NCBI GenBank assembly: GCA_024137785.1
Contig: JAHRHZ010000009.1
Coordinates: 27,303,874 to 27,367,873, forward strand
DNA length: 64,000 bases
Reading direction: 5' to 3'
Origin: Ginglymostoma cirratum
Lineage: Eukaryota
Made by a program: the position numbers and the translations under genes. Numbering within the stretch: the stretch's first letter is position 1; every line of letters begins with the position of its first letter. Below, piece by piece: positions 17,887-58,620 of this stretch. The notes beneath the pieces are model-generated. The model saw only the letters and a list, made by a program, of their open reading frames with translations. It did not search any database and was not told the DNA's origin.

Positions 17887-18830
17887 GAACATAGAACAGT
17901 ACAGCACAGTACAGGCCCTTCAGCCCACGATGTTGTGCCAACCTATTATCCTACTAAGATCAAACTACCCTGCATACCTTGCATTTTACTATCCTCCATG
18001 TGCCTATCCAAGAGTCGCTTAAATGTCTCTAATGTATCTGACTCCACTACCACTGCTGGCAGCGCATTCCACATGCCCACCACTCTCTGTGTAAAGAACC
18101 TACCTCTGACATCTTCACTATACCTTCCTCCAAACACCTTAAAATTATGCCCCCTCGTAATGTCATTTCCGCCCTGGGAAAAGGTCTCTGGCTATCCACT
18201 CTATCTATGCCTCTCATCATCTTGTGCACCTCTATTAAGTCACCTCTCATCCTTCTTTGCTCCAATGAAAAAAGCCCTAGCTCCGTCAACATTTCTTCAT
18301 AAGACCTGCCCTCCAGTCCAGGCAGCATCCTGGTAAATCTCCTCTGCACCCTCTCTAAAGCTTCCACATCCTTCCTATAATGAGGCGACCAGAACTGAAC
18401 ACAATATTCCAAGTGTGGTCTAGCCACAGTTTTATAGAGCTGCAGCATAGTCTTGCGGCTCTTAAACTCAATTCCCCTGCCAATGAAAACCAACACACCA
18501 TACGCCTTCTTTACAACCCTGTCAACTTGGGTAGCAACTTTGAGGGATCTATGGACGTGCACCCCAAGATCCCTTTGTTCCTCCACACTGCCAAGAATCC
18601 TGCCATTAACCCTGTATTCTGCATTCAAATTCGATCTTCCAAAATGAATCACTTCACACTTTTTCCAGGTTGAATTCCATCTGCCACTTCTTTGCCCAGT
18701 TCTGCATCCTGTCAATGTCCTGTCGCAACCTACAACAGCCCTCCACACTAGCCACAATTCCACTAACCTTTGTGTCATCAGAAAGCTTACTAACCCACCC
18801 TTCCACTTCCTCATCCAAGTCATTTATAAA
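17887..18830 (-). mobile_element. CR1 LINE (HER1-like), 5'-truncated and frameshifted RT C-terminus
   Basis: FINDLDEEVEGWVSKLSDDTKV, CEVIHFGRSN, RPHLEYCVQFWSPHY, RGDLIEV and FFTQRVVGMWNALP are spread across three frames. Tail gttctatgttc. Confidence 0.93.
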
Positions 18831-19269
18831 GTATTTGCTCAGGGTATGGCACAAATTGACACATGGGTGGCTTAAGAACCATGGGCAGGACATTTGTTCC
18901 AGAATCAGAACATAGATGTTAGGACTGTGCCTGTGTCCTGATTCCTGCCTGCACAACATATGCCTGGGTAGACACAGTCACAATTCCAATTTTTCACAGA
19001 AGTAGACTGTTAATTGGTTAAAGGGCTGGTTGGGTGGCAAAGTAGCAGCTATGGGGATGAAAACAGAGGTGGGATTGTGAGGAAGTGGGCCCAATTTAAG
19101 CACACAATGGCAACCATCAGTGTGGCTGTCACCTCCTGATGGTGGAAAGACGTCATTGTAGTATACTGGACATGCTGCCTCTCTGTTGGGGAGGAGCAAA
19201 TCAGCAAGTTTAATATGGCTGCCAGCTGCAAGCCCATTCGTCAATCATTTCTTGCAGCTCAATACAAAG

Positions 19270-21899: not shown

Positions 21900-24800
21900 T
21901 ATATTGTACACTCAAAACAAATGCTAGATGTGGGATTAGGTGACGGCTGTAGAGTTGTAAGAAAGTGCAGCTACTGACAAGGAGACACAACTATATGAAT
22001 TGCTTTGAGCCGCCACTAAAATAAATGAAACACTGGTTAAGAGAAAATAGTAGCAGGTTTTCCCCTTCCAGCTCCTGTTCTCTATTAGGGGATATGAAAC
22101 AAAACTGTCACTTCTTCCACGTGAAATGGCGGAACTATGAAGCAGCAATAGATTTGTTGAGCAAACCAAAAAAATTCCAAGTTGCCATAGTGTTACACTA
22201 TTGCTGTCTGTCTGTTTCCATTTCTTTATTGGGACTTTGTAGCAATTGATACAACTGAGTGGCTTGATAGACCTGTTCAAATGGTAGTTGGGGATGAACC
22301 ACATAGCTGTGGGTCTGGAGTCACATGTAGGCAATACCAGGTGAGGATGGTAAATTTTCTTCTCTAAAGGACATTACTTAACCAGTTGGTTTATTTCTGA
22401 CAATCAATAATGGTTTCATGGTCATCATTAGATCCCTAATTCCAGATTTTATCAAAGGCACGCTTTGACCCCCCAAGTGGATGTTCCATTTGAACAGTAG
22501 GCATTCAACATTGGGGAACAAAGTGTAAAAGCATCAGTTGATCAATTATGTAACTTCATTAACTCAGCTCTCAGAAACCTCTGATTTGCACAATTAAAGG
22601 ATGATCTATTTAAAAACAGGATTGAATTAGGCGTAGTTCAGGAGTGAAGTCATGGGTCACTGTGAGAGGAGGAACTGGAAGAGGAAGTGACGTTTGCAGC
22701 AGAGCTGAATTAACAGATAGAGCATAGTCATGTCAGAAAGACCTGATCTAGTACTATGCTGACAGATCCTCGTAGAAAAAAGAGGCAGAACAAACAGAGA
22801 CAAAATGAAAGATGCAAATACTACAAAGGGGCAGAAGGCATGGGGAAAGTAATGTTCTCGCATTTTCACTGCAAAAAGCCTAATCATTCTGCACAAAAGG
22901 GTCTGGCTAAAAAGGCACTCAACACACCAGTACAGATGGCCACTGGCAGATATTGGATGAAGATTCCGACGAATCAGTCTACACTGTACAACAGGTTGGT
23001 TCAGTCAAGTTGATAGGTGAGACAAAATTTATAACAGTTGAAGTGAGAACTGCAGAAAGAGAATATCAGCTAAACGTAAAATGTTAAAGACTGGCGCATG
23101 ATTCAATATCTGCTTCACAGACCTTTGTGAAGCAGCTCAATTTGGCATTCCAAAAATGAAACCCTCAAAAGTAAGATTAAAGCTGTAACGTGCCACCATA
23201 CTCATGCTGAGAAGATAGATTACTCTATGGCTAAAATTGAAATACTGCAGATGCTGAAATCTGAAATAAACATAAAAAATGCTGGATAAAGTCAGGATGC
23301 CTAGCTACATCTGTAGAGAGAAAAATAGAGGTAATGTTTTGAGTCTGATATGATTTCTTTAGAACTGTGGATCCATTCAAACAATATGATTGAGGATCTC
23401 AAGTGCCAGACCATAGATGGAAAACAAGTGCCACTCACCTCAATCGCCACAAGCCTAGAACTTGGATTGATAATGATTAATGTTCCAAAAGAGATTTGTG
23501 ATGTGTCGTAGCACATTAAACTCTTCACCATTGAACCACATCTCAGAGAAGTACAGTGAAAAGTTAACAGTTTTAGGAGGTCTTCCAGGAGACTACTATC
23601 TTGATGTAGCTGAGAATGAAAGACCAGATTAGCGTCTGCTGAGGGACATTCTGGCTATTCTCAAGGCCAGCCCGAAAGCCAAGGTAGAAGAGCTGGAAAT
23701 GAAGGAAGTAATTAAGAAAGTGAAAACTCCGACATTATTAGCATTAGCATGAAATTATTAGAATTTGCAGCATGGTGACAATGAAACAACTTGGAAAGCT
23801 GAGACTTTGCACTGAACTAAAGGTCTAAACAAAGCTCTGAAGAGATCTTACTGCCCCATACATATTGAAGAAATTTGGCACAATTAGCACAAGCAAAGAT
23901 TTTCCCCACACTAGCTGTGAAAGGTGGTTACTGACAAGTGAATCTGGATGAAAGCAACAGTTTTCAAACCACATTCAAGATGCTGTTCAGAAGATACAGA
24001 AGGTTGTGCATGCCATTTGATATTTGCAGAATGTATTTTTGTAGACAACATGAGATAGGCAGTTCTCTCCCTGAAGTGGCAGGTACAGGAGATAATCTGC
24101 TAGATTATTGACGAGGAGACTCAATGGAAGAAGCTATTGCTAGCCATGGTCAAAATCTAGTTTGACTCACCAAATGAACCTGAAGATGAATGAGGAAATA
24201 TTACAATTAATAATATCTGAAGTCAAATGCAAAGGCAATATATTGATAGCAGTAGGTCTTCACCTGGATCTCGAGAAAGTGAGAGTTGTAGCAGAGACCA
24301 ATAGGTGTAAGAGTGGTGCACCTTTTTTTTGGATTAATCAGCAATTTGACAGAATTCTTGTCCAATTCAAAGCAGAGAAAAAGAAACAGCATTCACTAAA
24401 ATCCAGCAATAGCGATGGCAATGCCAGTGCTGATATAATATGATGTAAATAATGATGGTACCCTGCAATGTGACACCAGTGAGACAAGACATGGTGCAAC
24501 CCTAAAGCAACAAGTTTCAACAGTTATATTTGGAGGGTTGACACAATCAGGCCAATGTTACGCATTGTCTTTATGATCATTTCCTTCAATACCTACCAGG
24601 AGGATACAAAGTGACACAAGCCACTTCAAACCATTTTCCTCAAGCCCATTCTGTCACCTCCAAGTATTTTCAAGGAACATTACTCTGGTTATAGAGATAT
24701 CCTCTGGATGTGACATAAAAGCAAGAGAAACAGAAGTATATTGCAGACCTGGTGTCAAGAGCTACATTCCCAATGAAGAAAATAGAGGATGTTATGATTG

Positions 24801-46372: not shown

Positions 46373-49258
46373 CAAAATAGCCAATAAGTAGTACACTTCT
46401 ATTGAGGCAGTGAACAATGTAATAACTGAAGTGTGCAATACAGCTTGGTGAATGAGTAACTGTGGCAGATACAAGTTTGATATTAGATGTTGAGATGACT
46501 TAGAAGAGGCAAGTTGAAACAGAATGTTTCACTTCCTTATTTTCCCAGTAAGTGTCCTCAGTAACAGAGACAGAGGTCATTGCAAGCAAGGAGCAATTCT
46601 CAAATAACAGAAATTTGGAAGTGAACATGTTCGTTTTATTCATAATGTAATCATAGGGAATGAATGAGAGTCTAAACCAATCAACATGTTCAAGTAAAGA
46701 GTCTACATTGTTCAACACAAAACTACAGGCAGCTAAGAACAAAAATCTGTTGACAGAGATTGAAGATGTGGTGTATACAACTCTATGGAGGCCACAACTC
46801 AGAAAGGACAACCAATGGCTAATGATTCAAAATACTGCAAAAAAGAAATCTCCTCTTTTATCAATGATGATATTCCCCATGAAGGAAACCCAAGCGATTA
46901 AAGGTCCTCCTTGTTTGAAGTGGCCTATTGATATCAGACTGTTAGGAAAAGGATCAAAGACAACAGTCTTCCACCTAGCAAATTACCAGCCCACCAGTCT
47001 GAAGAGAATACAATCAAGAAAAATCATGAAACTCATAGATCACTTGAATTTGTAAAGTCAGACTTGGGGAGGAGATGGGATAGTGATGAATGAAGCATAT
47101 ACATCAATGCGCTTGAGCGGCGATATTGTATACAAGCCTCAAAGGGTTAATACAGAGCAGTGCCATTTGCATAACACACCATGATGATATCATATGGACA
47201 TGTAGGCAGAACAGCTTAGGATCTTGGTGGAGTATAACCTAGTTTCCAGACACCCCTTCAAAGTGTCTGTAACAATGTCTATCATATCAACATAACCTGT
47301 AATTATTTACTAACACGGAATAAAGTAGATTTTGTCAACTTTCAGGGACTCTTCTAGTTAGACTTCAGTGTGATTTTCCTCTACTGCAATAAACTATGCA
47401 GACCCTGTAGATCCCTATGCTTAAAGATGATGGTAGCAGCAGATCTATCACATTGTGGGGTGCAGACTTAGTTTAGCTGCACATACAAGTCAAATGACCT
47501 TCATCTGTGTTGTAACCATTCCATGTCGCTGTGATTCGATGAGAAACACAAATATTTAAAAGAAAATGAAGAACTTTGTAATTGTCTGTGGGCTGGAATT
47601 TATACTCACCCACCAGTGAGTTTAAAGGTGACTGGGGCAAATTTTCACTGTCACTCGCCCACTCATGACTTTTCTGCAATTTAATGGGAACACTTGACAG
47701 CTAGCAAGGGCCTTATTCTGCTGTCATCAATATCTTTACTGCGGAGCCAAGCAGGAAGACCAGCAGCTTTAGCTCTGTGCGGATGGGGTGGGGATCAGCT
47801 ACCTCCTTTGAGAACCCCATGGAACAAGTGGAGGATGTCCCACATCCCCACCCCTCCAAGTTGAACCCCCACATTTAGACCTCCACCCTGCCTTTTGAAC
47901 ACAGCCTCCCCAATCCTCTCTCCAGGGCAGGCCCCAGTGAGATACCAGAGGTACCTGGGCTTCTTAGTTCCTTGATGTCCCGGCAGTAGCAGTAGCTGGC
48001 TTTCACTAGCGCCAGTGAAATTACAGAACTACAGCTAAGTGGCTTGGTCAGCAGTTATCTAAGATAGCACTTCTTCCTGAGGTAAGGCAGATGTATCAAC
48101 TTAAAGCTTTTGATACTGCTCCCAGCATTAAATTGCTGCAGGGTAGTCATTCAGATGATGGGATAGCTCCCCTCTACTTTTTTAGCCGGAGATTGGTTGG
48201 ACTGGTAGTGGGATCGGGACCATTGTAGCCTTTTGGAATCAGCCTTATGAGTTGTCTCGCTGCACTCTGCAAATTTATTCCTGGAGATCCAGGTCAACTG
48301 TGGAAAGTTGCCAACTGTACCATCCATACTGTAAACATGCTGGCTGTAAATTTGCTGGGATTGCAGCATGAGCCTTTATTACTCTTGAAAAATTTTTGGC
48401 AATGGAGAGGGAGCGACCCTCTTGAAAGTCCCTGCAGTCATTTTACATTTCTAATGTGGTGGAGTGAATTTCATTTTTGGTAATACAAGATCTGACAGAG
48501 CTGGGAAAAATATTCACTTTTTGGAGTCCACAGTCAACACAATACATTCTTAGGTTAATTATTGCATAAAATAAAAGCAGACAATTTACAATGCAGAACA
48601 GAGTTGGTATTTTTCACCACAATTTTTCTAACTATCTTATTTCAAATTGTAGTGGTTGTGCACAAATCTTTTCGAACTTGGGCTGCATTCATACTATGGG
48701 GTCATGGTAACAAAGAATGACTTTCCACTGTACAAATCAGATCTATATTCAAACTGAAGTGAAACAGGTGTGTCATAATAGACCTTAACTCAGTATACCC
48801 TCTGATTGTGAATAATGTTTCATGGGGGAATGAAATTCTACAGAGAATGCGTCATCATCCTAGGAATATTTCTAAACATTGATAGTACTTTAAATGTACA
48901 GGACAGAAATGAAGCTCCAAATGCTGATACATGTGGCGAGTACATAAGCATGTGAATGATAAAAGGCATTTGAGGAGTCTTTCTCCAGAATGCAATTCTA
49001 TCTTAAACAGTCCGTTCCTACTCAAACACCCAATCCAAGAAACTGGTTGTCTATTAAAATTCTGTGATTTTATTAAAGCATTTAATGTAATATTCTGTTT
49101 GGTTAATTTTATGAATTAGTTAACTTGCAGCAATTTACTCAGGTAGTTGTCACTTTGCTACATGGTTGTAGACTAAACTAGCTGTACTCTGACCAAATCT
49201 GATCAGAAAAGTGTATTGCTTAATATTGTCCATAAATAAAAATGATGGATCCACATAC

Positions 49259-49463
49259 CTGCATAAATGGACTTTTTTGAACAGGATGGAGCAAGCAGAC
49301 ACTGAATTTCTTTCCTCTGTAGTCCGTATTTACCAGATCAAAGGCTATAGTCTCAGGAACTGCCAGAATAATTGACACAACCCAGATGAGAATAATTTCA
49401 ATCACAGTCCACATGGGAACTCTGATTCCTTGAATACGGCTCCAGGATGCCACAGCTCGATAC
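49259..49463 (-). CDS. EDNRB: Endothelin receptor type B family, coding exon 3 (DRY/ICL2-TM4-ECL2)
   Basis: (R)[68 protein letters not shown]. Acceptor ctcag|, donor |gtatgt, 205 bp. The phase-2 junction with exon 2 makes AG|G = Arg of DRY. Confidence 0.97.
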
Positions 49464-49582
49464 CTGAGATTGGGTTCATGCATTAGAGAAAAAAAGGCAT
49501 TATGCATTGAAATGCCTCTCAATAATAAGCAGTGAGAGAGGTAGGACAGAGAAAAATATGTTTGATTGCTGTGTTAAATTAC

Positions 49583-49695
49583 CTGTCTATACTGAGTGCA
49601 CAGAGACTGAGAACAGTGATTCCAACAGATGCCTTTTGCATAAATGGCATTAGTTTGCATATTTCCACCCCAAAGGGCCAGTCTTCAGCATGGAG
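49583..49695 (-). CDS. EDNRB: Endothelin receptor type B family, coding exon 2 (ECL1-TM3)
   Basis: Translates [38 protein letters not shown]. Acceptor ttcag| at 49696-49700 and donor |gtaatt at 49582. The 113 bp length matches human EDNRB exon 2 as I recall it. Confidence 0.97.
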
Positions 49696-49899
49696 CTGAA
49701 AAGAAAAGGATTAACTGCAAATTAATTTCTGAGATGAACACGTTTTAAAAAGTGACTTCATCAATACAGTCCCGAAATCTTGAAAGTGGAGTGGTACCAA
49801 TTTCCCAGACTTCTGTGTATGCAGGAGGCTATCCACTTTTGTTTCTTCTTTAACTTTTCTACTTTTTCTATTCCGATGGCATCATTAAGAGGTACTAGA

Positions 49900-52730: not shown

Positions 52731-53638
52731 GCGGATAAGCAGTTTTTTAAAGTATTGATGTGATCTGAGAACTACATATAAATGTCAAATAACATTCAGC
52801 GAGATGTATCGTACAGCTCCAATGCTTTGTGCTGTTGAGACGACAACAAGAACAATGAAAAAAATTTACATCATTTCAACATAAAATGCTTTGAACATTA
52901 TTCTTTTCAATTAGTATAATTTAGTGCTGATAGCTGCTGTTGTTTATAGCTTTCATTTTTCCAAAGACTGGAGTGTCAAAGTCAACGACATTGAACAAAA
53001 TGAAAAGAGAACCGAAATAAGTGGGCAGAAAGAGAAAAGAAAAATTCAAACCCATTTAAAGTGATCAGTAGAAGAAGATGTTAAAATGCAAACAGCACGT
53101 GTGGTGTTTCAAATGGTGAAATGCACAACGAAATTCAAAGCAAGGTCATATTGACTAGAGGAATAAAAATTTGGCACAGAAGGAAAAATAAATCAAGTTC
53201 ATTTCATTCCAACAAATTTACTTCTGCAATTAATCCCAGGAGCTATCCACCAACATCCTTATTCTACACACCATAAATCTCTAAAGCTACTTCATTAGTA
53301 AGTTCCATTAGATTGAAATCTTTTAAAATGCAAGAAAAAATGGGTTGAATTGTCTAGGGATTATTCACTGCTAGCAGGAGAAAAGAAATTGCATTTATAT
53401 GGCATGTTATCACATTTTTGAGCAAATCCTAAACTAACAGGTTAATATTGAAAGTGGTCATGGTTATGCAGATATATTCAACTTACGTTCACATAATGCC
53501 TTTAATCTAATAAAACATCCCGAGGCACTTCACAGGAACATTGTCAGTCCACATGAAGAGACAATGGGGTCGGATGACAAATCATGGTCAAAAAGACAGG
53601 TTTGATACAGTGTCTTAAAGAAGGACATCCAATTACAG

Positions 53639-53818
53639 CAATTGTTGGAAAAGCTCAGCAGGTCTGGCAGCATCTGTGGAGAGAAATCAAAGTTAAAGTT
53701 TCAGGTCGAGTTTTGAGGAAGGGTCACAGATGCTGCCAGATCTGCTGAGCTTTTCCAGCAATTTCTGTTTTTGTTTCTAATTTACAGCATCTATAGTTCT
53801 TTCAGTTTTTATTTGTCT
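53639..53818 (+). mobile_element. Penelope-derived insert with inverted arms, nested in L2
   Basis: aattgttggaaaagctcagcaggtctggcagcatctgtg and cacagatgctgccagatctgctgagcttttccagcaatt form an inverted pair. TSD tccaatta(c/g)ag at 53628 and 53819. Confidence 0.8.
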
Positions 53819-55419: not shown

Positions 55420-55640
55420 AAGGGAAATACTGCAGATACTAGAAACCTGAATAAAAGCAGAAAATGCTGGGGAAACTTAGCAAATAACTAAGAACTCAAC
55501 GGTTATGCCAGAATCTGTAGAGGGAGAAACAGAATTAACTGTTGAAGAGACATATTGGAATCAAAATGTTAACTCTGTTTCTCTCTCTACAGATGCTGGC
55601 ATAACCGTTGAGTTCTCCAGCATCTTCCTTTTTTTTTATT
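55420..55640. mobile_element. Older Penelope-derived insert with inverted arms
   Basis: ctcaacggttatgccagaatctgtagagggagaaacagaattaac and gttaactctgtttctctctctacagatgctggcataaccgttgag form an inverted pair around a decayed hammerhead centre. Confidence 0.7.
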
Positions 55641-57455: not shown

Positions 57456-58200
57456 GCAAGCATTCAGCTCCTGGGAAGGATTACAGAGACAGGAGCTAAG
57501 TGAAATCCAATTACACTTTAGAGACGGCTTACAAATTCCAGAAGATCTGATTATAAAAAGGGTGTGAAAAGTGTAATAAACCCTGAGACATCCTTCGCTC
57601 CACTGGCTCCCATGTTACTGGTTTAATCCAGTTGCGGATTGTGCAAATATTGTGTCAGCAGCAGTTTTAGTAAGGCCTGACTGATCCACATTGTTGGTTT
57701 TGTGCACTGTGTAAGGGATATACTCCATGACCTTTACTTTTAGGTATGTCACATTGATAATCGAAGGAGACAAAGGGTTTGGCAATATGTCACAATGCAG
57801 CTGAACCCATGCTCAAGCATAGACACCAAATGGTAGCTGGTGAAGGACATTCTTGATTTCAAAAGGATCATTATAAAAAGACAAAAAAAATTGTAAAATA
57901 GAAGTAGAAAACAGTTCAGGATATTAAACTGAATTTTGTTCATTTCCCCGTATACAGGACTACTGGTTAAAATTGAAATTAATGCACTTAAGAAAATATG
58001 TTTGCATAATGCAACTAAGAACCTTACAGTGAATGTGGAACATTATAACCATATGCCCATGATTTTTGTTCTTGGCAGATAGTCATCTTGACAGTATAGA
58101 AAGAATCCAGCCTGTTCAAAATGGCCACCCAGTTACTGGGATATAAAGCAGAGTGGAACATTGATGTCTGCCACTGAATGTTGTTATTGCATTCAGTAAG

Positions 58201-58418
58201 TCAAAAATCACAATAATACCAGGTTATAGCCCAACAGATTTATTTGAAATCATATGCTTTCGAAGCGTAGCCCCTTCATCAGGTGACTCACTTCACCTGA
58301 TGAAGGTGCTATGCTCCAAAAGCTTGTGATTTCAAATAAATCTGTTGAACTATAACCTGGTGTCATGTGATTTCTGACTTTGTCCACCCCTGTCCAACAC
58401 CAGCAATTTCACATCATG
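58201..58418. mobile_element. Palindromic Penelope-derived insert with two back-to-back hammerhead motifs and 12-bp TSD
   Basis: Inverted arms of ~85 bp around a ctcact loop (~58286-58291). TSD gcattcagtaag at 58189-58200 and 58419-58430. Confidence 0.85.
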
Positions 58419-58514
58419 GCATTCAGTAAGCATCAACTCGAATCATTACTTGTCAAACTGGAGACATACCAAGAAGGTAAAAATTGTTGTTCCAGTTCTA
58501 ACTTTTTCTAACAG

Positions 58515-58620
58515 TTTTCTGAAGAAGGGTCCAGACCCGAAGCGTCAGCTTTCCTGCTCCTCTGATGCTCCCTGGCCTGCTGTATTCCTCCAGCTCCACA
58601 CCTAGTTATCTCTGACTCCG
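58515..58620 (+). mobile_element. Short Penelope-derived insert
   Basis: ttttCTGAAGA-A-GGGTC-CA-GACCC-GAAGCGTC-agctttcctgctcctctgatgct..., the same tail as 46245-46372. Confidence 0.8.

Follow-up and report, generated by a model that had tools for sequence, protein, structure and literature searches.

A hammerhead-bearing palindrome in a shark endothelin receptor intron as two inverted ends of a Penelope-like element, with twin priming as its proposed origin

The analysed window comprises 64,000 nucleotides of shark genomic DNA and carries, on the − strand, part of an endothelin receptor gene. The exon at 49223-49573 showed its best match to endothelin receptor type B (E 3.5e-29, versus 1e-18 for type A), the preceding exon was found at about 49600-49700, and the first coding exon lies about 1.4 kb past the window end. 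Exons 2 and 3 of this type B-like gene are located at about 49220-49700 (−). The insert described here, a hairpin of 218 bp (58201-58418), is placed within intron 1, as the earlier note on this DNA had presumed, and the first coding exon is about 7 kb away from it. Elsewhere in the window, we observed two further short palindromes with 49-nt arms, at 55491-55616 and 53630-53773 (94% and 90%, respectively), which belong to another repeat family; isolated arms of this family also occur near 23300, 29130, and 52210, and the palindromes are possibly similar stubs from another element. A broken LINE-type reverse transcriptase fragment was found at 18047-18977 (−).

The insert is flanked by an exact 12-bp TSD, gcattcagtaag, at 58189-58200 and 58419-58430 on the + strand, as clean on both sides as had been claimed. 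It is characterized by two inverted arms (58213-58286 and 58293-58366; 74 nt, 86% identity) which, beyond one 1-nt offset, run on as 58198-58212 and 58366-58380. The arm-to-arm alignment spans 88-89 nt, with a divergence of 12.8%, or 10.3% without CpG columns. Folding, performed on the + strand only, gave a hairpin of -115.1 kcal/mol (z -16.7), and none of the 200 shuffled sequences folded equally well.

From left to right, the insert consists of an inverted, tail-less copy of an element end (58201-58286, −), which begins at position +4 relative to the inferred RNA start and stops at the proximal end point; a head-to-head junction (58287-58292, +), made of three bases matching the upstream sequence of the element and of an Inr-like start, with the A at 58290 as the inferred +1; a sense copy of the same end (58290-58380, +), recognized as part of a pLTR by sequence comparison with the family; and a tail of 38 nt (58381-58418, +) with a terminal ATG, at which the element ORF begins in copies that continue further. 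The right arm starts at -3. The arms of about 85 bp proposed earlier are thus real, at the slightly greater length given above, but the 6-nt loop between them is not a designed feature, because the left arm ends at 58286 and CTC together with ACTTCACC belongs to the upstream sequence of the element itself, which 5'-extended copies also show. Similarly, the tail, described as a unique sequence of about 40 nt, is indeed one-sided, with no mirror partner, but it is the standard tail of the family. The junction exhibited no untemplated base and no extra G at -1, and the arms were unmixed, both being of the TA loop subtype. The last 3 nt of the left TSD copy also match the end of the inverted arm. 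Indeed, the target bases adjoining both ends (58198-58200 and 58419-58420) match the continuing sequence of the element over 3 nt and 2 nt, respectively; comparable end overlaps were observed in many sister copies, which suggests microhomology at priming.

Each arm contains a minimal type I hammerhead motif, and the letters were found to be as the earlier note had read them: on the + strand (58293-58329), G12 is replaced by A at a CpG (58318), and on the − strand (58286-58250), the cleavage-site U is lost (U16.1 to A). Both motifs fail the core test, the core being broken on each arm, and are presumably inactive. In passages of PMC4209133, the minimal type I hammerheads of metazoan PLEs are described with the same extra base between A9 and stem II, the same G10.1-C11.1 pair, and a palindromic 15.2-16.2 without loop III, whereas each window motif lacks one core base. 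This type is reported there to require a second same-sense copy and to cleave poorly. The two short hammerhead pieces folded alone gave no ribozyme fold, an outcome that says little about a motif type reported to need a dimer. An Rfam search over the whole 64-kb window (E ≤ 1) returned no hammerhead match and four weak unrelated matches only.

The two hammerheads had been called divergent; they do differ now, but by decay only, as the left and right majority letters of 82 sister palindromes differ only at CpG columns. Both cores are intact in 8 of these 82 palindromes. It had also been suggested that a ribozyme motif would be available whichever strand was transcribed. There are indeed two motifs, one per strand, but no design value of this arrangement is supported, because both cores are broken, because the minimal type is a dimer-needing, poor cleaver in the passages of PMC4209133 cited above, and because the motif is buried in the 88-bp stem of either transcript. 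The motif that is sense in the host pre-mRNA (58250-58286, −) is, in the predicted hairpin, stem-buried and without its cleavage-site U. Judging from their sequences, both ribozymes of this copy would be dead, and the copy is most likely neutral.

An empty orthologous site, proposed earlier as a check in related sharks, was found in organism D (run X19), where one 3,554-nt contig carries both flanks of the insert. This contig aligns from 58420 onward, and of the 30 letters directly before this point, 25 agree with the left flank; the empty site holds one TSD copy, with 11 of 12 letters aligned (one contig from one run). The exact TSD and the empty site with its single TSD copy support the arrival of the palindrome in one insertion event. 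The flank in organism D is about 90% alike (47 differences out of 451), and the arm divergence would be in line with decay that began soon after organism D split off. A second repeat beside the insert, at about 58515-58620, is apparently absent from the organism D contig too (139 letters there versus 496 here). A right-flank search of runs X18 and X9 gave no match, which has no bearing on insert presence, and one contig of run X1, which is only guessed to be RNA, spans 57919-58249 with 1 difference.

Use of the hairpin by the host, as a dsRNA element in the receptor pre-mRNA (an ADAR or Dicer substrate with a regulatory role), was considered in the light of these comparisons. The predicted + strand hairpin is very stable, it is intronic, and a second species carries it: in organism B (run X3, about 97% alike), contigs extend into both ends of the insert. 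However, it is absent in organism D, its arms are 10-13% apart, as neutral decay since about the split from that organism would give, and there are thousands of like copies. Such a host role appears extremely improbable.

The family search of the source genome yielded 4,494 first-look candidates, and 39 other scored copies were 82-87% alike, this set, like one further copy set, being biased toward the query. With the tail and the distal arm as the query, 29 other loci were found; an inverted arm was present at most 600 nt upstream in only 10 of them, and many instead extend upstream in shared sequence. Followed out, this shared sequence leads to a GIY-YIG-type frame. In 24 out of the 25 loci found with this frame, the same end was located 307-1,069 nt downstream of it, in sense, its last base being that of the arm or that of the tail. 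An inverted arm lies upstream in 7 of the loci. Two near-full copies, L086 and L087, exhibited broken RT, cysteine linker and GIY-YIG frames. On the 5' side, both carry the end in inverted orientation and with its tail, and L087 has a TSD around the whole copy. In L086, a Cys-x4-Cys-x2-Cys stretch, resembling a Zn-finger linker, separates RT and EN. The GIY-YIG endonuclease was identified by motifs in decayed frames; a Pfam search with six decayed frames of L086 and L087 and with the endonuclease piece gave no match. The relatives of the RT piece of L087 were shark proteins, two of them with RVT_1 (E 2e-11 and 3e-6), and a PDB search with an RT piece gave no meaningful match. The tail ends at the ATG of the ORF, and L088 continues into the ORF start (81.5% to L087).

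Some copies were unusual. In L044, the tail is directly followed by about four telomere-type TAACCC repeats, either through insertion into an interstitial telomeric tract or through telomerase-like healing. In L022 and L153, the tail is repeated in tandem, partly or wholly, at the 3' end. L088 also includes a compact rearranged copy (1263-1764) in which each outer end bears a tail and the centre contains an inverted ORF-start piece. The locus pairs L052/L053 and L111/L112, which have common flanks, are local duplications, each locus carrying a copy.

Overall, RT is followed by GIY-YIG in one parent ORF, the pLTR end is found both behind EN and running into the ORF start, and the family includes an inverted 5'-truncated copy, a one-sided tail of 30-40 bp, a short variable TSD and a minimal hammerhead in the pLTR, all of which are characters of EN+ PLEs. 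The insert is almost certainly the hammerhead-bearing end (pLTR, minimal hammerhead, and tail up to the ORF ATG) of an abundant PLE with RT and GIY-YIG, an affiliation missed in the earlier note. The Zn-finger-like RT-EN linker of L086 is a character expected of Neptune, and passages of PMC8557442 give it as common to Neptune and Nematis; this putative linker points to one or the other. Among the candidates rejected were the TIRs of a DNA transposon or MITE, which the earlier note had raised together with a matching transposase and a fixed TSD length: the same end stands behind GIY-YIG in 24 of the 25 loci, the ends are those of an RT/EN element, TSD-type repeats range from 8 to 20 nt, and junctions vary. 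A non-LTR retrozyme was also rejected. Retrozymes, as described in part of 10.64898/2026.07.22.740005, are likewise short, non-coding, hammerhead-bearing and derived from PLE pLTRs, but they form direct tandem repeats of monomers bounded by hammerheads, whereas a single, dispersed inverted pair with a tail and a TSD was observed here.

The EN+ PLE insertions described in passages of PMC8557442 and PMC3846280, including Pen2a_Av of Adineta vaga (PMC3846280), resemble the shark copy in having a head-to-head inverted pLTR with a tail at one end; a TSD of 9-12 bp, with one TSD copy at the empty site; and a pLTR with a TATA, a TCACT Inr-like motif and a hammerhead. In contrast, the shark copy consists of the two ends only, in 218 bp, and such minimal palindromes are numerous, making up 38 of the 100 sampled motif matches. 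The Poseidon element of Anolis carolinensis, PAc, is also similar: according to passages of PMC11167929, it has two fixed 3' end points that bound a tail and a hammerhead near the ORF start, and its copies include the uncut hammerhead. In PAc, as given there, the ORF begins at stem II, with RT initiating 111-118 nt further in, whereas the shark tail ends at the ATG, about 90 nt past the hammerhead, and the shark element has a cysteine RT-EN linker of the Neptune/Nematis type.

A genome-wide junction search had been proposed to distinguish between a fixed palindromic unit and one regenerated at each insertion. The 18-nt junction of the window copy occurs once in the 4.36 Gb genome, and 55 junction geometries were observed among 82 sister palindromes. 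As junctions vary, the palindrome is likely regenerated. The 82 palindromes were obtained from 84 by dropping L142 and L089, which had duplicated junctions; 5 out of 142 loci were removed as repeats of the same place, and L111/L112 are not independent. TSD-type repeats (8-20 nt) were found around 47 of the 84 palindromes and in 0 of 300 mismatched flank pairs.

If the palindrome were a fixed, MITE-like or retrozyme-like mini-element spreading as a unit, its junction variety would come from later deletion at the hairpin centre. The narrow size range (about 210-225 bp) and the recurrence of one junction in 8 out of the 36 junction-selected loci are in line with this possibility. However, of the 82 palindromes, 8 had this commonest junction in one orientation with respect to the tail and 5 had it in the other; it was also observed with both loop subtypes, and no fixed left/right differences were found. 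Moreover, arms of the same copy were closer to each other (15.1% apart) than arms of different copies (17.5%; 0 out of 2,000 permutations). Inversion points formed a graded series: in 10 of the 29 tail-selected copies, their distance to the distal arm was 23-473 nt, and in L059 it was about 1 kb. No tandem arrays were seen. The fixed-unit reading, already largely refuted, is highly improbable; the palindrome was very probably built de novo at insertion. All copies are old, at about 7% from the majority sequence.

Counts bearing on the mechanism were mainly made on a sample chosen blind to the tail and to the upstream sequence: of 1,719 copies matching a 16-nt motif on the 5' side of the hammerhead, the first 100 were used. 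Three types of copies were observed: upstream-extended copies (33), palindromes (38), and other short copies (29). Among these 29 'simple' copies are several palindromes with short arms and about 5 upstream-extended copies that were missed; the latter would contribute C rather than G to the non-extended class. A tail was present on exactly one arm in 37 of the 38 palindromes, on both arms in none, and on neither in 1, versus about 19, 9, and 10, respectively, expected under independence (p 5e-9); in passages of PMC8557442 and PMC3846280, by contrast, the tail of EN+ PLEs is called optional. In the junction-selected set (n = 36), 28 palindromes had one tail, none had two, and 8 had none, four of these 8 being borderline.

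In the same sample of 100, 67 copies stop within a few bases of the A (+1) of the Inr-like TCACTT. TATAAA was present at -29 to -35 in 10 out of 31 non-palindromic copies reaching +1. With TATAAA about 30 nt upstream and the Inr-like TCACTT, the position of this 5'-end pile-up would correspond to the pLTR transcription start. Passages of PMC3846280 note the TATA and Inr-like motif pair in a rotifer pLTR, and part of PMC2377424 reports that transcription of the Drosophila element starts within the pLTR. A G was found at -1 in 29 of the 67 non-extended copies and in none of the 33 extended ones, all of which have C or T (p 8e-7). The extra G was carried by 24 of the 37 tail-less arms that reach +1, and, among junctions with at least 2 spacer bases, G stood at -1 in 16 of 21 non-genomic cases (hand count). 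Two of the 29 'simple' copies have a TSD able to prove the G untemplated. The start-site pile-up and the G at -1 fit a run-off to a capped 5' end. We lean slightly toward the G being a cap-templated base, although microhomology to the G-rich end of the opposite arm confounds this reading.

The loop II subtype agreed between arms in 45 of the 49 typed pairs, 33 of the 82 pairs being not typable; 4 pairs were mixed, versus 21.6 expected if arms were independent. These mixed pairs occurred in both directions and at four different junctions, and 1 more was found among 10 newly typed pairs in the sample of 100. Rare variants were common to both arms of a copy in 33 cases, versus 12 expected. Among the 82 palindromes, the arm reaching further 5' was the tail-less one in 27, the tailed one in 35, and neither in 20, where both were equal.

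Twin priming, whether from one RNA or from two, is the likely source of these palindromes, and we consider it reasonably probable that both strands of a staggered cut prime RT in one insertion, at a distal and a proximal RNA start site. One strand of the staggered target cut would prime at the distal start site of the element RNA and the other at the proximal one; both cDNAs would run off the 5' end of this RNA, often adding a base opposite the cap; their ends would then be joined through 0-2 nt of microhomology or a few untemplated bases; and gap filling of the staggered cut would leave the 12-bp TSD. The two arms of the window copy were probably identical at insertion and have decayed since. 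In passages of PMC11167929, the Anolis Poseidon protein is reported to cut and extend both strands in vitro, starting at two sites that bound the tail, and to use mainly uncut RNA as its template, which matches arms that hold the whole hammerhead. A more detailed version is offered tentatively and is somewhat doubtful: one complex would prime both strands, always at the distal site on one and at the proximal site on the other, in the 5' copy of the pLTR; the cDNAs would run off the capped end, with a cap-templated G, and be end-joined; and about 1 in 12 events would use two subfamily RNAs.

A fold-back of a single cDNA would also produce an inverted pair. In this case, after running off the RNA, a tailed first cDNA folds back and is extended on its own sequence as far as the proximal site; alternatively, an antisense template primes itself, as proposed for the inverted structures of rotifer PLEs in passages of PMC3846280. 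Fold-back accounts for the maximum of one tail, for the concordance of arms (45 of 49) and for their common rare variants, and the commonest junction is compatible with a 2-bp snap-back. Arm concordance alone fits both mechanisms, since fold-back, or arm-to-arm gene conversion, predicts it as well. However, fold-back does not lead one to expect a tail-less arm that reaches further 5' (27 of 82), the extra G on tail-less arms, or the 5 mixed-subtype pairs, and it gives no reason for a stop exactly at the second start site, which also ends tail-less long copies. The one-tail rule, the mixed pairs and the longer tail-less arms would fit two-site twin priming better, and we regard fold-back as unlikely. 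Later decay may nevertheless account for some of the junction variety and some of the 'longer arm' cases, the copies being old and palindrome centres easily deleted, and the window copy itself has neither a G at -1 nor mixed arms to set in favour of twin priming.

As a variant of twin priming, two separate RNA-protein particles might each supply one arm, their two RNAs generally deriving from whichever single source locus is active at the time. The mixed-subtype palindromes, of which there are 5, require either two templates or subsequent conversion; the same segment of the RNA is copied in both arms; and a dimer is predicted for the Anolis protein in passages of PMC11167929. However, independent RNAs would give two-tail and no-tail palindromes, which were seen in 0 and 1 of the 38; the two primings thus appear to be coupled. 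One RNA and two RNAs are not separable with old copies, and the two-particle variant seems quite unlikely.

In L1 elements, twin priming occurs when both target strands prime, which results in a head-to-head inversion within one TSD. The arms of L1 inversions are different parts of one RNA, whereas the shark arms are the same segment with two adjacent starts. In PLEs, the origin of the tandem and inverted structures and of the tail is stated to be unresolved in passages of PMC8557442. Our searches of the openly available literature returned no paper dealing with Penelope palindromes of sharks or with PLE twin priming.

The architecture and the hammerhead motif are already published, and the locus itself is ordinary, being one decayed copy among thousands. 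The copy nevertheless carries a warning for annotation, as such hairpins should not be taken for MITEs, miRNA precursors or working ribozymes. The family counts (the one-tail rule, the start pile-up with its extra G, the rare mixed arms, and the fact that either arm may be the longer) separate twin priming from fold-back, and they are testable in the existing in vitro PAc system described in passages of PMC11167929. If two-site twin priming is true, the inverted pLTRs, the tail on one side and the abundance of 90-130 nt stubs would all follow from one rule.
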